The notes under the pieces: model-generated
Seen by the model: only the letters and a program-made list of their open reading frames with translations
Told to the model about the DNA's origin: nothing
The model's database searches: none
In this document: piece by piece, positions 970-8,130 of the stretch
How the letters are laid out: the number at the start of each line of letters is the position of its first letter
How positions within the stretch are numbered: position 1 is the stretch's first letter
Program-made: the position numbers and the translations under genes
Origin: a virus
Lineage: Duplodnaviria > Heunggongvirae > Uroviricota > Caudoviricetes
Strand: one strand, 5' to 3'
Virus record (IMG/VR): IMGVR_UViG_2654587509_000003
Coordinates: 1 to 8,130 of that record
Length of the DNA: 8,130 nt

Positions 970-1407
970 TTATTTTAAGCACTGCGTCCTGATGTATTCC
1001 TGCAGGTAGTTAACCTGCGCGGTTATCTTGTCGATTCCACCTCGGAGACGGTAATAATTGAGTTCAGCATCTGCTGTAAGCCCTGGGCTTTCTCCATCGC
1101 CCATGCTGCTGGTTCCGGTCGTTGACTTTGCACAGGTGGCGGAGACTTGCAGGCGCTTACGACCAGCAGAAACATCGGCACGGAGACTTTCGATAGTCGC
1201 GTTAGCATCAGCAAGTTCCTTTGTATATCTTGCGTCGAGTTCTGCTACATCACGTTGACGCTTCTGCATATCAGCGATGATGGATGTGGCTTTATCGCGC
1301 TGCTCTTTGTAGGCGATGGCGTTATCACGGTAATGATTAACAGCCCATGACAGGCAGAGGATGATGCAAATAACCAGAGCGGAGATAATCGCGGTTACCC
1401 TGCTCAT
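970..1407 (-). CDS. Rz: Rz i-spanin (inner-membrane spanin subunit)
   Basis: N-terminus [30 protein letters not shown] closely resembles lambda Rz as recalled (N-terminal TM, then charged coiled-coil-like region). The ATG at 1407 overlaps the endolysin stop (ATGA). The track's start at 1419 is an upstream GTG extension. Confidence 0.85.
1023..1214 (-). CDS. Rz1: Rz1 o-spanin lipoprotein, embedded out of frame within Rz
   Basis: 63-codon ORF in the +1 frame inside Rz. Signal peptide with lipobox (LLVVSAC) followed by a Pro-rich mature region ([16 protein letters not shown]), which is the classic embedded Rz1 architecture. Confidence 0.75.
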
Positions 1408-1901
1408 TGCTGCCCCCACAAACAGACTTCACGCTCAATATCACGACGGGTCATCAGCCCTTTCCATTGCTTACCGCCAGCGTATGTCCAGCGACGTAGC
1501 TGGTCACATGCGCCTTTGATATCACCCTGGTTTATTTTGCGAAGAAGCGTCGATGTTCTGAAATTACCAGCGCCCACGTTGTAAACGAACGAGTAAAGAG
1601 CGCCGCGCGTTGTTTCCGGTATATCGACTTTGATGTACGGGTTAATTTGTCTGGCGACCGTGGCAAGGTCTTTATTCAGGAGGGCTTTGCATTCTGCTTC
1701 GGTATACGTTTTACCGGGAATGATGTCTTTTCCGGTGTGTCCGTGACATACAGTCCATACGCCAACGATATCTTCGTATGGTATGTAGCTGACACCTTCC
1801 AGGCCATCGTCACCACTCGGACCAGTGATGAGCACAGACGCTATGGCAACAGCCCCACCACCAATAGCAGCAGCAACAGCCTTGCGTAATGATGGCGACA
1901 T
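1404..1901 (-). CDS. R: SAR endolysin (phage lysozyme, R21 / RrrD-like)
   Basis: 165 aa. N-terminal Gly/Ala-rich weakly hydrophobic signal-anchor-release segment ([20 protein letters not shown]), then a lysozyme core with E...D...T spacing ([24 protein letters not shown]). Near-identical to the DLP12/P21-type lysozyme as I recall it. AGGTG Shine-Dalgarno; start overlaps the holin stop (TAATG). Confidence 0.9.
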
Positions 1902-2116
1902 TATTCACCTCTCGCAGCCTTACGCTTATCTTCTTTAATCTTGAAATAAAGGTTTGTCAGATACGTCAGCAAGCCAAACACCAGGCTACCCAATACGCCT
2001 ATTGCCACCCACTGGGATGGGGAGACTTTGTCCAGCAACTGCAGTAGCCAGTATCCCGTCCCCACCGCTGACGTGGTGTATGACACACCTGTTGTGATTT
2101 TTTCCATCTGGTACAT
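1901..2116 (-). CDS. S: Class II pinholin (S21-like) with dual-start motif
   Basis: 71 aa, [71 protein letters not shown]. Two TM segments and a charged C-terminus. Met1-Tyr-Gln-Met4 gives the antiholin/holin dual start typical of S21. The track's start at 2161 is an unsupported N-terminal extension. Confidence 0.85.
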
Positions 2117-2295
2117 ACCCCGTCTCCCGTTATCCGGAAGCTGACAACAATAAAAAGCCACCAGTTAATTCCTGATGGCCCTGATGCATAAACGTCATAA
2201 TACCTGACTGTTATGATTGACAATAATGATAATGTTTATATAGAAAGGTCCCCGATGTGTGTTACATATCATTTCTCCACGGGGAATATCCCCAC

Positions 2296-2346
2296 GCCAG
2301 CGCAGACTCTTTTACCCGTTCTCTTCTGCGCTGGCTCTTTTTTATT
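2296..2346 (+). terminator. Plus-strand intrinsic terminator (11-bp GC-rich stem, then TCTTTTTTATT)
   Basis: gccagcgcaga (2296-2306) pairs perfectly with tctgcgctggc (2325-2335) around an 18-nt loop, followed by tcttttttatt. The U-tract is only on the plus strand. A GGGGA-ata-TCCCC hairpin sits just upstream (2281-2293). Confidence 0.45.
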
Positions 2347-2524
2347 ATGCTGCTGCATTTACCTCTGGCACCAGGCTTTCTATCTCAACACAATACGTGG
2401 TACTTCTTGTAACCAATATCATAACGATTAATCGACATAGAATTTCTCCCGTGTACAGGAACAGAGTTAAAAAGCCGGAACCGGAATCAAATCACAGGAT
2501 GACCATCTGCCAGTGGCAGGTCAT

Positions 2525-2551
2525 AAAAAAAAGGCCGCGCCATGCGCAGCC
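2525..2551 (-). terminator. Strong minus-strand intrinsic terminator between the cargo gene and the holin
   Basis: Minus-strand RNA 5'-GGCUGCGC-AUG-GCGCGGCC-UUUUUUUU: 8-bp GC-rich stem with one G.U pair, 3-nt loop, then 8 U (plus-strand A-run 2525-2532). Confidence 0.55.
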
Positions 2552-2981
2552 AGAACTCACAAGGAAAATGATAGAAGGAAATAACATTAGTGATGTACGC
2601 ATGGCGCCTCCCGCTAAGTTCTGCAATGATCAAACAGAACTCGCTACGTGCCCTTAAAACTCGATCATTTAGCCCCTCCAAGGAGGATTCACCATGCGGT
2701 TGGTTTTTTAATAAACAGTAAACAAAAAAGTCAAGAATTATTCATTCTGTTCTTTCATCATCGGCCACAGCAATACCACAATGCCGCAGACCAGAGCGCC
2801 ATCAGTCAGTACCAACATTATCCTGCTGGTGAAATCCATCATCACCATCACTAAAAGCAGGATCACAACAGCAAGCAGACACAGTTTATAAAACAATGTT
2901 CAGAAAACGCATTCAGCATGCCTAAGGTTCTATTCCTACGAATAGCCAACTTGCAACTTAAAATATTATTTATGCAGCCAA

Positions 2982-3740
2982 TTAAATTCTGGTCCTTACA
3001 ATATCAACCTGAAGATTCTTATCTTGTGCTGATTGATAAATGACAAACCTTTTACTACCTGCATTGAAAGAAGTAGACAAAACCAGACAATTATCATAAC
3101 GAGCAAGAACATAATACCAACCATCATTATAATTAATCATTTCATATTCTTTCTTAAACTGCGGTTTGTAATATCCTGTCAGAAATGAAAAAAGCCAGAA
3201 ATATGCCACAAAAGCAATCATCACAATCTCAAAAAAATGTTTTTTTATAAATGGCTTATCATAGAAGCATGATACCGATAAAAATCGCCCATAAGATCTT
3301 ATCGAAATTGTAACCGCCAGCGCAATCGCTGCTGACAGTAGCAAAAGAGGTACCTGAATCTTCTGTCTCAATATAGAAAACTCAATAATTGCCGGCACAA
3401 ACAATAATTCCACAGCAAAATAAAGGCGAAATACATTTAGCTCTTGCATAGAATGTTTTCTTTTCACTGCGAAAAAGAATACAACACCAATACCCCAACC
3501 GATAAGAAATATAGCAATGACGATAACTGCAAAAAATAAACTTCTGGCAACATCATCAACACCTGCACCTACAATCCACCATGGGAAGCCGTAGTAAAAA
3601 GAAGTACCCCATCCATAGAAATAAGCACTCCCCCATCCAAGGCATCCCATGTAGGCAATAAAAAGTGAAGAACTCCTGAGCAGCGCACCATCCTTCATAA
3701 CCACCCCAATACAAGATGATAACATTGGCTTACAACTCAT
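2982..3740 (-). CDS. Hypothetical polytopic membrane protein, AT-rich cargo (moron) gene
   Basis: 252-codon ORF. The likely true start is ATG at 3698 (MKDGALL..., preceded by GGGGTGG); the ATG at 3740 has no Shine-Dalgarno. About 5-6 hydrophobic helices and a hydrophilic C-terminal tail of about 50 aa. Hand-counted GC of sample stretches is about 30-35%, against about 55% in rusA. No family recognised. Confidence 0.7.
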   Translation of the reverse strand: MSCKPMLSSCIGVVMKDGALLRSSSLFIAYMGCLGWGSAYFYGWGTSFYYGFPWWIVGAGVDDVARSLFFAVIVIAIFLIGWGIGVVFFFAVKRKHSMQELNVFRLYFAVELLFVPAIIEFSILRQKIQVPLLLLSAAIALAVTISIRSYGRFLSVSCFYDKPFIKKHFFEIVMIAFVAYFWLFSFLTGYYKPQFKKEYEMINYNDGWYYVLARYDNCLVLSTSFNAGSKRFVIYQSAQDKNLQVDIVRTRI

Positions 3741-3836
3741 AACAAAAGCAATTCAATGCCGTCAAGAGGTTACAGGCTAAAAAACTCTATTACATAGCAG
3801 CCAGCATGTTTACCGTACAAGTACAACTCAGGGCAT

Positions 3837-3860
3837 AAAAAAAACCCACTCGGCAGCGGG
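3837..3860 (-). terminator. Intrinsic terminator about 50 nt downstream of the Q stop (candidate tR')
   Basis: Minus-strand RNA 5'-CCCGCU-GCCG-AGUGGG-UUUUUUUU: 6-bp stem with one G.U pair, tetraloop, then 8 U (plus-strand A-run 3837-3844). Confidence 0.55.
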
Positions 3861-3908
3861 TTTATACATTTTTTACAACATACCAAATTTGCATGAAGTA
3901 TATGGCTT

Positions 3909-4598
3909 TTAATCCAGTTTTGCAATATTTTGCTGTAAAAATGCTGCCTTTTGTTTTGAACGTGTTCTCGTCACAAGCAATAAAGCATCACTATCAAGCT
4001 GTAGAAAAATGTGCTTCATTGCAACCCAGCGTTCAGTAAATGTCTCGGACCAGTTTTTTGTTGTCACTCCCACCAATGATGCCAGTGTCTGGTATTCATA
4101 GGCCTCACGCCCTGCAAGTTCGCTCTTCACATCCTGTGCAGCCAGCCAGATTAACGTCTTCAGGCGATCCAGTGTCTTACCTGCAATTTTTCTGTTACTT
4201 AACAAATCTTTAAACTCGCTCCATGCCCATTGCGTTATGGTGACCTGATGCCCCCATCGAACGCTTTCGCTGTAACACCAAAGCAACCATGCTTTCTGAT
4301 GTTCATCGAGAGACAAAACCGCGCGGCGCCATGAAGAGGTTGAGAATTCAACCGGGCTGACCAAAGCAATGGATGAACCTTTTGCGTACGACTGCTTACC
4401 GGAAGTCGGCGTATTATCCAGCGTAATCATCTTGCCAGTTACCACATCCAGAATGTGCGGCTTCTTTCGTTTGTATGTACCAGTATCAAATTGTGCATGC
4501 TCCTGCCAGGCTTCGAGCTGGCCTTTCGTTGCTCCGTTCAAGTCAGCAGTAGCTGCCATAAGTTGCTCACGAACATACTGTAAATATTGGGTATTCAT
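3909..4598 (-). CDS. Late-gene antitermination protein Q (QuuQ-like)
   Basis: 229 aa from ATG 4598 (MNTQYLQYVREQL...) with AAGGA 8 nt upstream. Sits between the rusA/ylcG block and the lysis genes, the canonical Q position, and resembles the E. coli Qin-prophage Q as I recall it. The track's longer ORF to 4682 overlaps ylcG and is an artefactual extension. Confidence 0.65.
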   Translation of the reverse strand: MNTQYLQYVREQLMAATADLNGATKGQLEAWQEHAQFDTGTYKRKKPHILDVVTGKMITLDNTPTSGKQSYAKGSSIALVSPVEFSTSSWRRAVLSLDEHQKAWLLWCYSESVRWGHQVTITQWAWSEFKDLLSNRKIAGKTLDRLKTLIWLAAQDVKSELAGREAYEYQTLASLVGVTTKNWSETFTERWVAMKHIFLQLDSDALLLVTRTRSKQKAAFLQQNIAKLD

Positions 4599-4612
4599 GC
4601 AGTAAATCCTTT

Positions 4613-4735
4613 CTATATTTTGGCATAATTCTTCAACATTCGGTAATCGTTCAAAACCGAATCGGGGAAACGACATAAGCACAGGAGCCCCCAGCGACAG
4701 CGAAGGAGTTCTGATATATAAGACTCAAACATCAT
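4613..4735 (-). CDS. ylcG: Small YlcG-like protein (40 aa)
   Basis: Translated by hand; not in the ORF track. [43 protein letters not shown] overlaps the rusA stop (ATGA). Resembles DLP12 YlcG in position and motif as recalled. Confidence 0.5.
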
Positions 4736-5094
4736 TCATCTCCCAGTTCAGTGATGGTCAGTTCCAGCTTCCCACCTTTGGTAACAGGCATCTTCACAAC
4801 GCGGTAATCAACGACCAGCTCATCATCCAGCCAGAAACCTGCTTTAGTGAGTGCGTCAAAAGCGGCTTTTTGCAGATTATCCTGGTCACGGCGACGGCGA
4901 TCCGGCATGTGGCACTCAATGCGGATTTTCACAGGCATAGCCAGACCGATATCCAGCATTGAGCCTTTAATGATTCGGGCGACGTTATCACGGTATGCCT
5001 GCCCTTCTGCGCTGATGTGCGTGCGCCCGCGATTATGCCTGTAGTAGCGGTTATTGCTCGGCGGCCAGGGTAGTGTGATGTGGTAAGTATTCAC
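4732..5094 (-). CDS. rusA: RusA Holliday-junction resolvase
   Basis: [43 protein letters not shown]...[31 protein letters not shown] is near-identical to E. coli RusA as recalled. GTG start at 5094 overlaps the ybcO stop (GTGA). The track's start at 5157 is an extension. Confidence 0.9.
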
Positions 5095-5999: not shown

Positions 6000-6030
6000 G
6001 CTTCACCTCCGCAGAGGTCAAACGCTGGAT

Positions 6031-6132
6031 GCAAAAAATCGCAGGTGCATCTCTGCATCTGTGAAGGGAGAAGAGAGTTTGGATTGTATGTGCGCATAAA
6101 CGTCCCCGTTTAGCGCAGAAGTCACCGGAGTT
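6031..6132. repeat. Direct repeat copy A (~102 bp), immediately upstream of ybcN
   Basis: Aligned by eye to 7965-8066: 96 of 102 positions identical. Weaker similarity continues about 35 bp further right. Contains the TGCA-GNRA-TGCA mini-hairpin and a GGAG...CTCC hairpin. Confidence 0.85.
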
Positions 6133-6193
6133 GTTCAAGCTCCAATGGCATGATTATGGCTGGTTGATTATTGGAAATCAAATGTGCTGAAAA

Positions 6194-6938: not shown

Positions 6939-7547
6939 TTATTGCAACAGATTCTGACGGAAATATGGTAACACACGACTCCACTTATCATCCTGCCACG
7001 GTTGGAATTTTACATGCGCCGTTTCTCTGGCAAGGGTTTCTCGCGCCCTGTTGAGTATCCGAGGATATTCTTGTTCGATTGAAGTGAATCTACCTGCTTC
7101 GCGATGCTCTGCGACCTGAAGAAGGGGCGTAACGTTCTGGCAGGCGGTTAACATCGTATCACTTGCTCGCCATAACCAGGAGAGTGTGCAAAGTTCGTTA
7201 TCAGTGAATTGTTTTGTGATTGGGGATTGTTGAACTTCTCGATCGAGAATATCCAGAACCCAGCGGCGGAATTCTTTGGCCACAGGAGTACGAGCAAACA
7301 TGGCGATCAAATGGGCTCCGCGAAGGCTAAATACTCGAGACTCCTGCATTCCACGAGGGGTGGTCACTTTGACCACCCTTGTCATCATATCTGTGAATTC
7401 ATCTGAGTGCCGAGAGTAAATGCGCTGAACTGCTTTATCGTCCGCATATTCCAGTGCTAAACCAACTTCAGTGGCAGTAAGCCAAATTCTGTTATTGTGG
7501 CAAATCGGGGTAAACGTCGTTTTGTGGAATGCTAATTGAGTAGTCAT
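6939..7547 (-). CDS. Bro-N / antirepressor-like DNA-binding domain protein (Roi/Ant-like) with uncharacterised C-terminal domain
   Basis: 202 aa. N-terminal NNRIWLTATEVGLALEYADDKAVQRIY...RVFSLRGAHLIAMFARTPVAKEFRRWVLDIL fits the Bro-N / ORF6N-type pattern as recalled. GAGGTG Shine-Dalgarno before ATG 7547. GC about 55%. Confidence 0.6.
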   Translation of the reverse strand: MTTQLAFHKTTFTPICHNNRIWLTATEVGLALEYADDKAVQRIYSRHSDEFTDMMTRVVKVTTPRGMQESRVFSLRGAHLIAMFARTPVAKEFRRWVLDILDREVQQSPITKQFTDNELCTLSWLWRASDTMLTACQNVTPLLQVAEHREAGRFTSIEQEYPRILNRARETLARETAHVKFQPWQDDKWSRVLPYFRQNLLQ

Positions 7548-7571: not shown

Positions 7572-7604
7572 TCACCACCAACGACGCCAATCGACTGGTG
7601 GTGA
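7572..7604 (-). promoter_or_regulatory. Perfect 9-bp inverted repeat (TCACCACCA-N15-TGGTGGTGA) in the upstream/5' region of the Bro-N-like gene
   Basis: Seen directly. Could be a protein operator or a 5'-UTR hairpin. No U-tract follows, so it is not a terminator. Confidence 0.3.
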
Positions 7605-7703
7605 ACTGTGTAAGGTTGGCGTAACCGGCTACTCAAACCCGGCGCTTCCGAAGAAGCCCTCACACAGCCCACCATAATTTGGGCATAGCCGTGCTTAGCG
7701 CAC

Positions 7704-7724
7704 AAAAAAACCGCTTAACGCGGT
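7704..7724 (-). terminator. Modest intrinsic terminator (tR-like) upstream of the Bro-N-like gene
   Basis: Minus-strand RNA ACCGC-GUUAA-GCGGU followed by 7 U (plus-strand A-run 7704-7710). Confidence 0.4.
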
Positions 7725-7810
7725 ATGCGTTGAGTAGTATCCCGGGACGCCAATCCCGTGTGCCGATTTTGCGGCAACGCACAGAATATAGCGCCGGATA
7801 AATCATGTCG

Positions 7811-8059
7811 TCAACCCCAGTAAATGGACACCATGATGATCACAGCCATAGCTGCTACAACAGTTACAACTACCTCAGGCCAAAACATAACGATTTCCAT
7901 ATCACCTTTAGCCGCCAGACGAATAGAGACTCCCAATTCTGGCTGTCGAAGTAAAACACCGAATGTAAAAAATCGTAGGTGCATTTCTGCATCTGTGAAT
8001 GGAGATGAGAGTTTGGATTGTGTGTGCGCATAAACGTCCCCGTTTAGCGCAGAAGTCAC
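7811..8059 (-). CDS. Hypothetical small protein (82 aa) with hydrophobic C-terminal segment; N-terminus encoded by repeat copy B
   Basis: GTG start inside the repeat. C-terminal MEIVMFWPEVVVTVVAAMAVIIMVSIYWG looks like a TM helix. No obvious Shine-Dalgarno, so coding status is uncertain. Confidence 0.3.
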   Translation of the reverse strand: MTSALNGDVYAHTQSKLSSPFTDAEMHLRFFTFGVLLRQPELGVSIRLAAKGDMEIVMFWPEVVVTVVAAMAVIIMVSIYWG

Positions 8060-8066
8060 CGGAGTT
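7965..8066. repeat. Direct repeat copy B (~102 bp)
   Basis: Partner of 6031-6132. The six differences are at repeat positions 2, 12, 21, 36, 41 and 58. Confidence 0.85.
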
Positions 8067-8130
8067 TTTTAGGCTCCGATGACAACATTATGGCTTTTTT
8101 ATTTCTAAATTCAAAACTTGAAAATATTAA

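Follow-up and report, generated by a model that had tools for sequence, protein, structure and literature searches.

Two look-alike promoter-terminator pairs between Q and the holin gene: a probable phage-82-type late-control unit and the small RNA gene pasD

The window analyzed here, meaning the whole 8,130-nucleotide stretch of Caudoviricetes DNA from IMG/VR record IMGVR_UViG_2654587509_000003, carries on its minus strand the antiterminator gene Q, a cargo gene, a gene for a small membrane protein and, as the first lysis gene, a class II holin (Table 1). Searched against complete E. coli genomes, the window as a whole matched no one locus over 80% or more of its length. Q shares 202 of 229 residues (88%) with phage 82 Q (X92588), and its start codon agrees with the RefSeq and phage 434 annotations; a search of the PDB found no structure of a Q82-family protein. 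The label "Qin-type", which the first-pass annotation used for the prophages to compare with, is imprecise, since Q is of the phage 82 type (PF06323). The cargo protein is WP_001302581.1, which is identical in O157 and EPEC prophages; it belongs to no Pfam family, and its gene has candidate ATG codons at 3740, 3725 and 3698. The holin ATG at 2116 lies 409 nt beyond a terminator at 2551..2525, and what had been read as a leader of about 400 nt contains an Esr41-like small RNA on the opposite strand. Specifically, this element has a TTGACA at 2217..2222, a terminator stem at 2296..2335 followed by a T run and a fold z-score of -6.0, and Hfq-dependent RIL-seq chimeras have been reported in EPEC at the equivalent of 2302..2343.

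Table 1 Features of the interval from Q to the holin gene, with the basis of each assignment
Feature	Position	Strand	Basis
Q antiterminator gene, phage-82 family, 229 aa	3909..4598	-	Pfam PF06323, E 1e-90
pR' -35 hexamer TTGCAA, within the last Q codons	3920..3925	-	sequence; identical in phage 82
pR' -10 hexamer TATACT, 17-nt spacer from the -35	3897..3902	-	consensus scan
Inferred transcription start (+1), first A of AAATTT	3890	-	register from published phage 82 pR'
Sigma70-dependent pause element, extended -10-like TGGTATGTT, +6..+14	3877..3885	-	sequence, family conservation
tR' intrinsic terminator: 9-bp stem, GCCG loop, T run	3837..3863	-	hairpin search, fold, family comparison
Candidate cargo-gene promoter TTGTTA-18-TGtTATCAT, extended -10	3716..3745	-	consensus scan
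Cargo gene, membrane protein with no assigned function, 238-252 aa by start	2982..3740	-	PHROG 1521
DUF3927 / TciB-like small membrane protein	2738..2896	-	Pfam PF13064; PHROG 1470, moron category
TTGACT, probable pasD -35	2729..2734	-	sequence
pasD sRNA gene, PasD1-type, 173 nt, terminator 2551..2525 included	2524..2696	-	probe match, alignment
Esr41-like Hfq-dependent sRNA, within the "400-nt leader", ends approximate	2250..2343	+	Rfam Esr41, 32 bits, sub-threshold
Class II holin, first lysis gene, functional target of Q-dependent readthrough	1901..2116	-	Pfam PF04971

Two promoter-terminator pairs lie in this interval, one overlapping the end of Q and one beyond the cargo gene, and both had been put forward as possible pR'-tR' modules; all four motifs of these pairs are present where the first-pass annotation had placed them. 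The downstream pair, weighed there as the alternative late promoter, is the already described small RNA gene pasD, the homologue of EHEC EcOnc13 and a relative of STnc100, and not a pR'-tR' module. The probe used in published Northern blots, CATGCGCAGCCAGAACTCACAAGG, corresponds without mismatch to the reverse complement of 2567..2544, and PasD1 (NC_011601 1060260..1060432) maps to 2696..2524 through a 99.3% identical alignment. The DNA aligned here is 99.3% identical to EPEC PP4 and 99.1% to PP2, and its identity to PasD1 and PasD2 is 99%. The Rfam model of STnc100 (RF02076) matches over its full length with 37.5 bits (E 1.8e-5), short of the gathering score of 47 bits, and this sub-threshold score agrees with Zhu et al., who describe PasD and STnc100 as related but distinct. 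Near-identical pasD DNA gives rise to an Hfq-associated small RNA, as documented by Northern blot, RIL-seq and high uninduced read counts, and EDL933 transcribes related STnc100 copies without induction, one of them confirmed by Northern blot. The pasD terminator consists of a stem of eight pairs, seven of them G-C, at 2551..2533, with a T run to 2525. The 5' end of PasD is preceded by TTGACT at a distance of about 32 nt, and a Raoultella STnc100 copy has TTGACA in a similar place; the -10 is weak (TATTAA at 2713..2708 or nearby). A small open reading frame in PasD, which starts with an ATG at 2602 behind a good Shine-Dalgarno sequence and runs through the terminator, was considered as a gene and rejected; it is probably not coding, as it is frameshifted in PasD2.

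Published expression data fit such a separate unit. In uninduced EPEC, read counts from 99% identical DNA amount to 11017 and 8652 for pasD, 226 and 147 for the cargo gene, 69 and 6 for Q and 3.5 and 5.4 for the holin gene; pasD is hence abundant, the cargo gene moderately expressed and the holin gene silent. The earlier expectation that the cargo gene would be strictly Q-dependent is not supported by these counts. The cargo gene has a candidate promoter of its own, an extended -10 site identified by consensus scan (Table 1). That cargo reads exceed those of the adjoining Q gene lends this promoter indirect support.

The same data bear on the possibility that PasD is cut from the 3'UTR of the cargo/TciB mRNA, in which case TTGACT at 2734 would be irrelevant and 2551..2525 would be the terminator of the cargo operon, as the first-pass annotation had it. 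Many Hfq-associated small RNAs come from 3'UTRs, the -10 match is poor, and the 5' end of PasD derives from a coverage-based estimate and not from a start-site method. Yet pasD reads exceed those of the cargo gene about 50-fold and those of the directly upstream DUF3927 gene about 300-fold (before length correction), TTGACn precedes the conserved 5' end by about 30 nt in both PasD and a distant STnc100 copy, and sigma70 (RpoD) ChIP-exo signal has been reported at STnc100 promoters in Salmonella. Processing from the cargo transcript is rather unlikely, and pasD is probably transcribed from its own promoter.

The upstream pair is placed directly behind its cognate PF06323 Q gene. The final 27 nt of Q, including the -35, are identical to phage 82, and the match covers the -35 and the spacer up to the Q stop codon (TAA, 3911..3909), which falls between -35 and -10; a sigma70-type promoter is thus found at the position homologous to phage 82 pR'. 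The hexamers by themselves carry little weight: 6 promoter-like sites occur in 1800..4800 against 6.6 +/- 2.9 in shuffled sequences, so that the -35/-10 match alone is no better than chance, and the real support for this promoter is conservation and not motif score. The composite pattern of -35, -10 and, 10-13 nt on, TGnTAnnnT has a single occurrence on both strands of the whole window, at 3925, with 0.12 expected per shuffle and at least one occurrence in 31 of 300 shuffles. Beyond the window, 101 Q82-family loci from at least ten genera were compared; 100 have the Q82-type motif after Q, and in the remaining one the contig ends 3 nt past Q. Among 40 distinct Q82-family sequences the TTGCAA -35 is 95-97% conserved, and A at -11 (0.97) and T at -7 (1.00) are near-invariant. 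Because no transcript mapping was found for exactly this sequence, the assignment as the late promoter unit rests on this comparative evidence.

The predicted pause element further strengthens this assignment. Phage 82 pR' has been described as having an extended -10-like element, GCC at +15-17, U at +25 and a pause at +25/26, with the Q-binding element and the pause element contained within -31..+30. Placing +1 at 3890 puts the GCC of relatives at +15..+17 and T at +25, in agreement with this register, which is taken from the published position numbers as the phage 82 record itself ends at the Q stop. The window element TGGTATGTT has the -10-like hexamer TATGTT and is the sequence expected for pausing, which is predicted at +25/+26 (3866/3865). 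Across the 40 distinct sequences G+7, T+9, A+10 and T+14 are invariant and T+6 (0.93) and T+11 (0.97) nearly so, with sigma70-contact positions fixed or almost fixed and the neighboring +12 and +13 free (0.55 and 0.53). The G/C-rich GCC was not found at +15..+17, where the window has GTA; GTA also occurs in the phage 434 lineage, and most relatives have GCC or CGC. A GCC-to-AAA change at these positions cuts the pause half-life of phage 82 about 5-fold, and pausing in the window may accordingly be weaker owing to its GTA.

The conservation of these downstream elements also bears on how the -35 itself is read. The plus strand at 3921..3934, TTGCAATATTTTGC, fits TTGCN6TTGC, and the phage 434 record annotates a CII site and the -35 of paQ there, so the TTGCAA region might mainly serve a CII-activated antisense promoter and not pR'. 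Against this, conservation of the second TTGC half-site reaches only 65-93%, with several genera lacking it, the -10, start region and pause element are conserved together with the -35, and the Gifsy-1 motif, although displaced from Q, has kept its downstream elements, which makes a primary role as paQ improbable. The two functions are not mutually exclusive.

Shortly downstream of this promoter lies the hairpin AAACCCGCU/AGUGGGUUU (3863..3842), with a T run that extends to 3837, and the 56-nt RNA folds at -15.3 kcal/mol (z = -3.6). In the absence of Q, tR' would end an RNA of about 54 nt; counted from +1, the range is about 52-55 nt, close to the terminated transcript of about 50 nt proposed at first pass. 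Of 49 distinct regions downstream of Q82-family genes, 44 have a hairpin with T run, and the terminated RNAs would measure about 50-54 or 70-85 nt; the stems differ, with one compensatory change (GAGG/CCTT to GAAG/CTTT), and the phage 434 record annotates a terminator at the tR' site. The placement, which had been called unusual, is in fact the layout of the entire Q82 family, with the -35 in the last Q codons and the terminator 50-85 nt downstream. Published EPEC RIL-seq and RNA-seq tables contain no RNA for the Q-cargo intergenic region among the entries listed. An Rfam STnc240 match on this RNA (28 bits; E 0.6 in the window, 0.013 in a 171-nt stretch) was deemed a chance hit, as what aligns is the terminator and A-rich sequence. 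It is conceivable, if doubtful, that the short RNAs of Q82-type pR' units form a family of constitutive regulatory small RNAs instead of by-products, and that, by analogy with StxS, the one made here (3890 to about 3837) might have a trans-acting role in the lysogen in addition to gating late transcription.

Comparisons of flanking DNA indicate where the cargo cassette begins. Blastn homology with other Q82 phages stops at 3876, the end of the pause element, and identity with prophages carrying a lambda-type Q begins at 3841. This might suggest that the tR' hairpin is part of the cargo and does not belong to Q, a reading that was rejected, since those prophages have a degenerate hairpin copy and since the same short hairpin directly follows the Q82-type pR' in four other genera whose downstream DNA is unrelated. 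The junction can therefore only roughly be placed, between pause element and T run. The cassette itself also occurs behind Q genes of the lambda type (PF03589): EPEC PP4 and phage 2B8 both carry it there and have their own lambda-like pR'. PasD-like sequence is present in 35 of 101 Q82 loci, every one with this cargo gene. That the downstream pair is instead the true Q-responsive late promoter, built as in lambda, the upstream pair being a chance site or the terminator of the Q gene, is highly improbable. In its favor, TTGACT is a good -35, the strong terminator would end a 6S-type RNA of about 170 nt, and a leader of about 400 nt to the holin would follow. These linkage data already contradict it: the unit is missing from the other 66 loci and is 97-99% identical behind two unrelated Q families that need different Q-binding sites. 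It also lacks a -10-like pause element after TTGACT and makes a known Hfq-associated small RNA that is abundant without induction.

Sequence identities, family-wide conservation, linkage patterns and the published expression of near-identical DNA are thus best explained, with a high degree of confidence, by a model in which the upstream pair is a phage-82-type Q late-control unit and pasD forms a separate, Q-independent unit. This bears out the first-pass preference for the upstream pair as pR'-tR', and its reading of 2551..2525 as the terminator of a distinct unit likewise agrees with the comparative and literature evidence. For this particular sequence, we infer where transcription starts, that the polymerase pauses, and that Q loads and brings about readthrough. 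The constitutive sigma70 promoter would initiate near 3890, and sigma70 would subsequently re-bind the pause element, stalling RNA polymerase at about +25. If Q is missing, transcription would end at the tR' hairpin with release of the short RNA. Q, in turn, would bind to its DNA site, which in phage 82 falls within -31..+30, and load onto the paused complex, yielding a terminator-resistant polymerase that could pass tR', the cargo genes, the pasD terminator and weaker stops to reach the holin gene. The membrane-protein, TciB-like and pasD genes would constitute a mobile cargo cassette (about 3841..2414) expressed in the lysogen, and the pasD terminator would also shield the lysis genes from cargo and pasD transcription.

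Of the two similar promoter-terminator pairs, the one in control of lysis is thereby identified for a widespread type of prophage that includes phage 434, O157:H7 CP-933K-like and EPEC PP2-like prophages. The phage 434 record carries no late promoter feature. Linkage to a Q family provides a quick discriminator between a late promoter and an adjoining small RNA gene, and late promoters of the Q82 type can be called from sequence by TTGCAA in the last Q codons, a 17-nt spacer, TATAyT, TGrTATnnT at +6..+14 and a terminator. Cargo and pasD emerge as accessory functions of the lysogen, with the lysis genes placed behind two terminators that only Q-modified polymerase passes. Taken together, the layout is standard, an 82-type late promoter, pause and terminator next to the already known pasD, and the slot between tR' and the lysis genes is a normal moron position: in relatives it holds tRNAs, a cspA-like element, an ompC porin or an esterase, and in Stx phages it is occupied by stx.

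The lambda pR'-tR' unit (6S RNA) works in the same way: its constitutive promoter is followed by a sigma70 pause and a terminator, Q allows readthrough into S, R and Rz, and accessory genes are likewise inserted downstream of tR'; in contrast, lambda Q belongs to an unrelated protein family, the pause is at +16/17 and the RNA ends at tR' at +193. Lambda pR' is positioned downstream of the Q stop. A close counterpart is phage 82, which shares the Pfam family of Q, the 17-nt spacing, the terminal Q sequence with the -35, the extended -10-like element at +6..+14, T at +25 and the A run at the start, whereas its GCC at +15..+17, which supports pausing, is GTA in the window, whose -10-like hexamer is TATGTT; the window terminator also follows immediately, with the stem from +28, and would yield an RNA of only about 54 nt.

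Within this family, matches to IsrJ (Rfam RF01393) above the gathering score coincide with the Q82-type pR'-tR' RNA in four genomes, and the longer pR' RNAs of relatives match the model at 44-80 bits. In Salmonella Gifsy-1, isrJ has the same -35, -10 and pause-element motif upstream, and isrK-orf45-anrP precede the unit, which is 0.84 kb away from antQ; IsrJ, an RNA reported to affect Salmonella invasion, appears to be the pR'-tR' RNA of Gifsy-1. The model finds no match in 3790..3960 of the window even at E <= 10, the window RNA being a short variant.

PasD1 and PasD2 of EPEC E2348/69 differ from pasD of the window in nothing of substance, with 99% identical DNA, the exact probe match and the same neighbors, namely the WP_001302581.1 cargo gene, the DUF3927 gene and then the holin. 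A copy of STnc100 is also found 75 nt downstream of stx2. In the Stx1 phage, StxS (EcOnc15) and EcOnc42 bookend stx1AB; the cargo of the window differs, and its short RNA is shorter than StxS and unrelated in sequence, but the architecture is the same, with a constitutive pR' and a short tR'-terminated RNA 5' of the cargo, a small RNA 3' of it and the lysis genes beyond.

The relevant genes of the window all lie on the minus strand and together form a lambdoid late-control region (see table). Over 4744..2414 the window matches phage 434 at 99.2% identity, and over 4744..1291 it matches, also at 99.2%, a prophage that adjoins nleB2 in strains of O157:H7 and O55:H7. The motifs listed in a first-pass annotation are all present where it placed them. 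That annotation offered two sites for the late promoter and its terminator (pR'-tR'), candidate (a) at the end of the Q gene and candidate (b) beyond the membrane-protein ("cargo") gene, and preferred the former. The present comparisons bear out this preference: candidate (a) matches the promoter of phage 82, is conserved family-wide and is linked to phage 82-type Q (Q82) genes. As such, its assignment as a Q82-type late promoter is well supported on comparative grounds.

Features of the late-control region and IsrJ matches in related loci (window positions unless a locus is named)
Feature	Position	Strand	Remark
Antirepressor	7547..6939	-	Bro-N/P22AR
NinB, YbcO, RusA	between antirepressor and Q	-	
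Q	4598..3909	-	Pfam PF06323
Candidate (a) promoter	3925..3897	-	TTGCAA-N17-TATACT
Candidate (a) terminator	3863..3837	-	
Candidate cargo promoter	3745..3716	-	TTGTTA-18-TGtTATCAT; consensus scan
Membrane protein (cargo), 238-252 aa	3740..2982	-	without Pfam family
DUF3927/TciB-like protein	2896..2738	-	
Candidate (b) -35 TTGACT	2734..2729	-	
Candidate (b) terminator	2551..2525	-	
Esr41-like sRNA	about 2250..2343	+	Rfam; antisense to late operon, just upstream of holin
Class II holin	2116..1901	-	first lysis gene
Lysozyme, lysis protein	after holin	-	lysis genes
IsrJ match on pR'-tR' RNA	L010/L014/L023/L024 about 4706..4785		
IsrJ unit of Gifsy-1	L107 3501..3613		

A bare -35/-10 match is uninformative, since a consensus scan finds six promoter-like sites and shuffled sequences predict 6.6. 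The composite pattern, in which an extended -10-like element comes downstream of the promoter, is found only once in the window, at 3925, at a chance expectation of 0.12. Q antiterminators form three unrelated families, of which PF06323 is that of phage 82. Specifically, the window Q is 88% identical to phage 82 Q, and the final 27 nt of the gene, which include the -35 and the spacer to the stop codon, are identical in both. The published 82 pR' has a -10-like pause-inducing element, including an extended -10, with GCC at +15..+17, U at +25 and pausing at +25/+26, and both this element and the Q-binding element lie within -31..+30. A PDB search found no structure of a Q82-family protein. If +1 is placed at 3890, where AAATTT begins six bases past TATACT, then TG occupies +6/+7 of the window pR', TATGTT occupies +9..+14 and T falls on +25 (3866); relatives read in this register have GCC exactly at +15..+17. 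The hairpin that follows folds well (z = -3.6); the phage 434 record labels it a terminator and leaves pR' without annotation.

The comparison covered 101 loci encoding Q82-family proteins 60-100% identical to the window Q; 16 loci came from species-representative genomes spanning at least 10 genera, 80 were IMG/VR contigs and 5 were phages. The promoter motif follows Q in 100 of these, the exception being a contig that ends 3 nt past Q. Across 40 distinct sequences, conservation is 95-97% for the -35, 0.97 for A at -11 and 1.00 for T at -7; G+7, T+9, A+10 and T+14 never vary, T+6 (0.93) and T+11 (0.97) hardly do, and +12 and +13 are free (0.55 and 0.53). The conserved initial-transcribed positions are those that sigma70 reads in an extended -10 element, and similarity among Q82 phages ends at 3876, where this element ends. 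A hairpin with a T run is found in 44 of 49 distinct downstream regions, with stems that vary by lineage and one compensatory change; predicted RNA lengths are about 50-54 nt, as in the window, or 70-85 nt.

The window and the phage 434 lineage have GTA at +15..+17 (3875..3877), where phage 82 and most relatives have GCC. As GCC is required for the long sigma70-dependent pause at the 82 pR', pausing at the window pR' may be weaker or shifted. The terminator stem begins just 3 nt past the predicted pause site. On the plus strand, 3921..3934 (TTGCAATATTTTGC) fits the CII box TTGCN6TTGC and overlaps the pR' -35, whose TTGCAA is palindromic; the phage 434 record marks the equivalent sequence as the paQ -35 and CII site.

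Candidate (b) is, judged by sequence matches, pasD, a known sRNA gene. Reverse-complemented, the PasD Northern probe of Pearl Mizrahi et al. matches 2567..2544 exactly, and PasD1 (173 nt, NC_011601 1060260..1060432) maps to 2696..2524 through the 99.3% identical alignment with EPEC prophage PP4. PasD2 is located in EPEC prophage PP2, which is 99.1% identical to the window over 4744..2414, and EcOnc13 is the EHEC homologue according to Pearl Mizrahi et al. A full-length, sub-threshold Rfam STnc100 match spans 2727..2522. According to Zhu, Shabalina and Storz, the prophage sRNAs STnc100 and PasD are related; PasD lies near Q and LpxR genes, an esterase gene often comes after PasD2, and Esr41 is often close by. 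That the RNA is processed rather than initiated at its own promoter seems rather unlikely, even with the poor pasD -10 and a 5' end estimated from coverage. A small ORF inside PasD (2492..2602, minus strand) has a good Shine-Dalgarno sequence (GGGAGG) and reads through the terminator; the phage 434 record annotates a 63-aa protein there, and ribosome footprints are reported on an STnc100 copy, apparently that of CP-933K judging by its position. This ORF is probably not coding, because its frame is broken in PasD2.

Each Q family has DNA sites of its own, so a late promoter has to suit the Q it works with, and on sequence comparison this linkage tells the two candidates apart. Candidate (a) occurs strictly with Q82-type genes. 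The cassette of cargo gene, TciB-like gene and pasD (about 3841 to 2414), by comparison, also follows Q genes of the lambda type (PF03589), at 97-99% identity, in EPEC PP4 and phage 2B8, both of which have a recognisably lambda-like pR' between Q and cassette; this, together with the exact probe match, argues against candidate (b) as a rival pR'-tR' module. PasD-like sequence occurs in only 35 of the 101 Q82 loci, all with the cargo gene; in other loci tR' is followed at once by tRNAs, a cspA-like element, a homing endonuclease or the holin, and some E. coli genomes with similar flanks have an ompC porin in the cargo slot. The cassette boundaries lie at 2413/2414 and about 3841..3876. Past the former, phage 434 and EPEC PP2 have a SASA-family esterase gene; prophages with lambda-type Q match the window from 3841 on and retain a degraded copy of the tR' hairpin.

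The 400-nt leader proposed before the holin is not empty, as its plus strand holds an Esr41-like sRNA with TTGACA at 2217..2222, a terminator stem at 2296..2335 with a T run, and a fold z of -6.0. An identical sequence in EPEC PP4 has its reads (2064) assigned to the antisense ORF E2348C_1013. It is Hfq-dependent, and in RIL-seq chimeras the equivalent of 2302..2343 always takes the sRNA position; the entC 5'UTR is among its partners, which fits the Esr41 iron regulon. About 40 nt upstream of the holin start, 2154..2182 (minus strand) holds another hairpin that resembles a terminator but has a weak T run.

In uninduced EPEC, read counts (DESeq2 base means, not length-normalised, from near-identical DNA) are 11017 for pasD2 and 8652 for pasD1, 226 and 147 for the cargo gene, 37 for the DUF3927 gene, 69 and 6 for Q, and 3.5 and 5.4 for the holins. 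PP2 and PP4 differ little in this region and may share reads; whichever way such reads are assigned, pasD and holin counts differ by some three orders of magnitude. Related STnc100 copies are transcribed in uninduced EDL933, one confirmed by Northern blot, and sigma70 ChIP-exo signal is reported at Salmonella STnc100 promoters. Taken together, these data indicate that expression of pasD, and weaker expression of the cargo gene, does not require Q and that transcription stops short of the lysis genes, so a strict Q-dependence of the cargo is not supported. The cargo genes probably have a promoter of their own; cargo reads in PP2 (intact hairpin) are no lower than in PP4 (degraded hairpin).

Lambda, 21, phi80, 82 and P22 all produce tR'-terminated pR' RNAs. 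By family likeness, pR' would fire constitutively in the lysogen, with transcripts stopping at tR'. From pasD comes an abundant Hfq-associated RNA ending at its terminator, which would also insulate the holin. Following induction, Q would load onto polymerase paused at about +25, which would subsequently pass tR', the cassette and the pasD terminator to reach the holin, 1.77 kb from the start. For the window sequence, we infer the start site, pause, Q loading and readthrough.

Upstream of Q, 7594..7791 (minus strand) has Rfam isrK and C4 antisense RNA matches above their gathering scores, and a c4-a1b1 match (39.6 bits) under its own. Ahead of the antirepressor, this stretch is, by these matches, part of an IsrK/C4-type translational control module, which resembles that of Gifsy-1 but sits 3 kb upstream of Q. 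A 156-nt direct repeat (6014..6169 and 7948..8103, 87% identical, 1934 nt apart) flanks the isrK-antirepressor-orf169 segment and suggests its insertion or duplication via recombination.

Rfam IsrJ appears, by sequence, to correspond to the short RNA made between pR' and tR' at Q82-type late promoters, and above-threshold matches fall on this RNA in four genomes. In Gifsy-1 the -35, -10 and pause motif start directly after the anrP stop, ahead of isrJ, and this unit lies 0.84 kb downstream of the Q82-type antQ instead of overlapping the Q gene. IsrJ is reported to be highly transcribed under all conditions, as expected of a constitutive late-promoter RNA. Within the searchable literature no paper was found that states this link, which may be new. 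The window layout, initially considered unusual, is ordinary for the Q82 family, given the recurrence of promoter and terminator, and is shared by the "bookend" arrangement of Stx1 phage, in which StxS occupies the interval from pR' to tR' and another sRNA lies 3' of the toxin genes; at stx2, an STnc100 copy lies 75 nt downstream.
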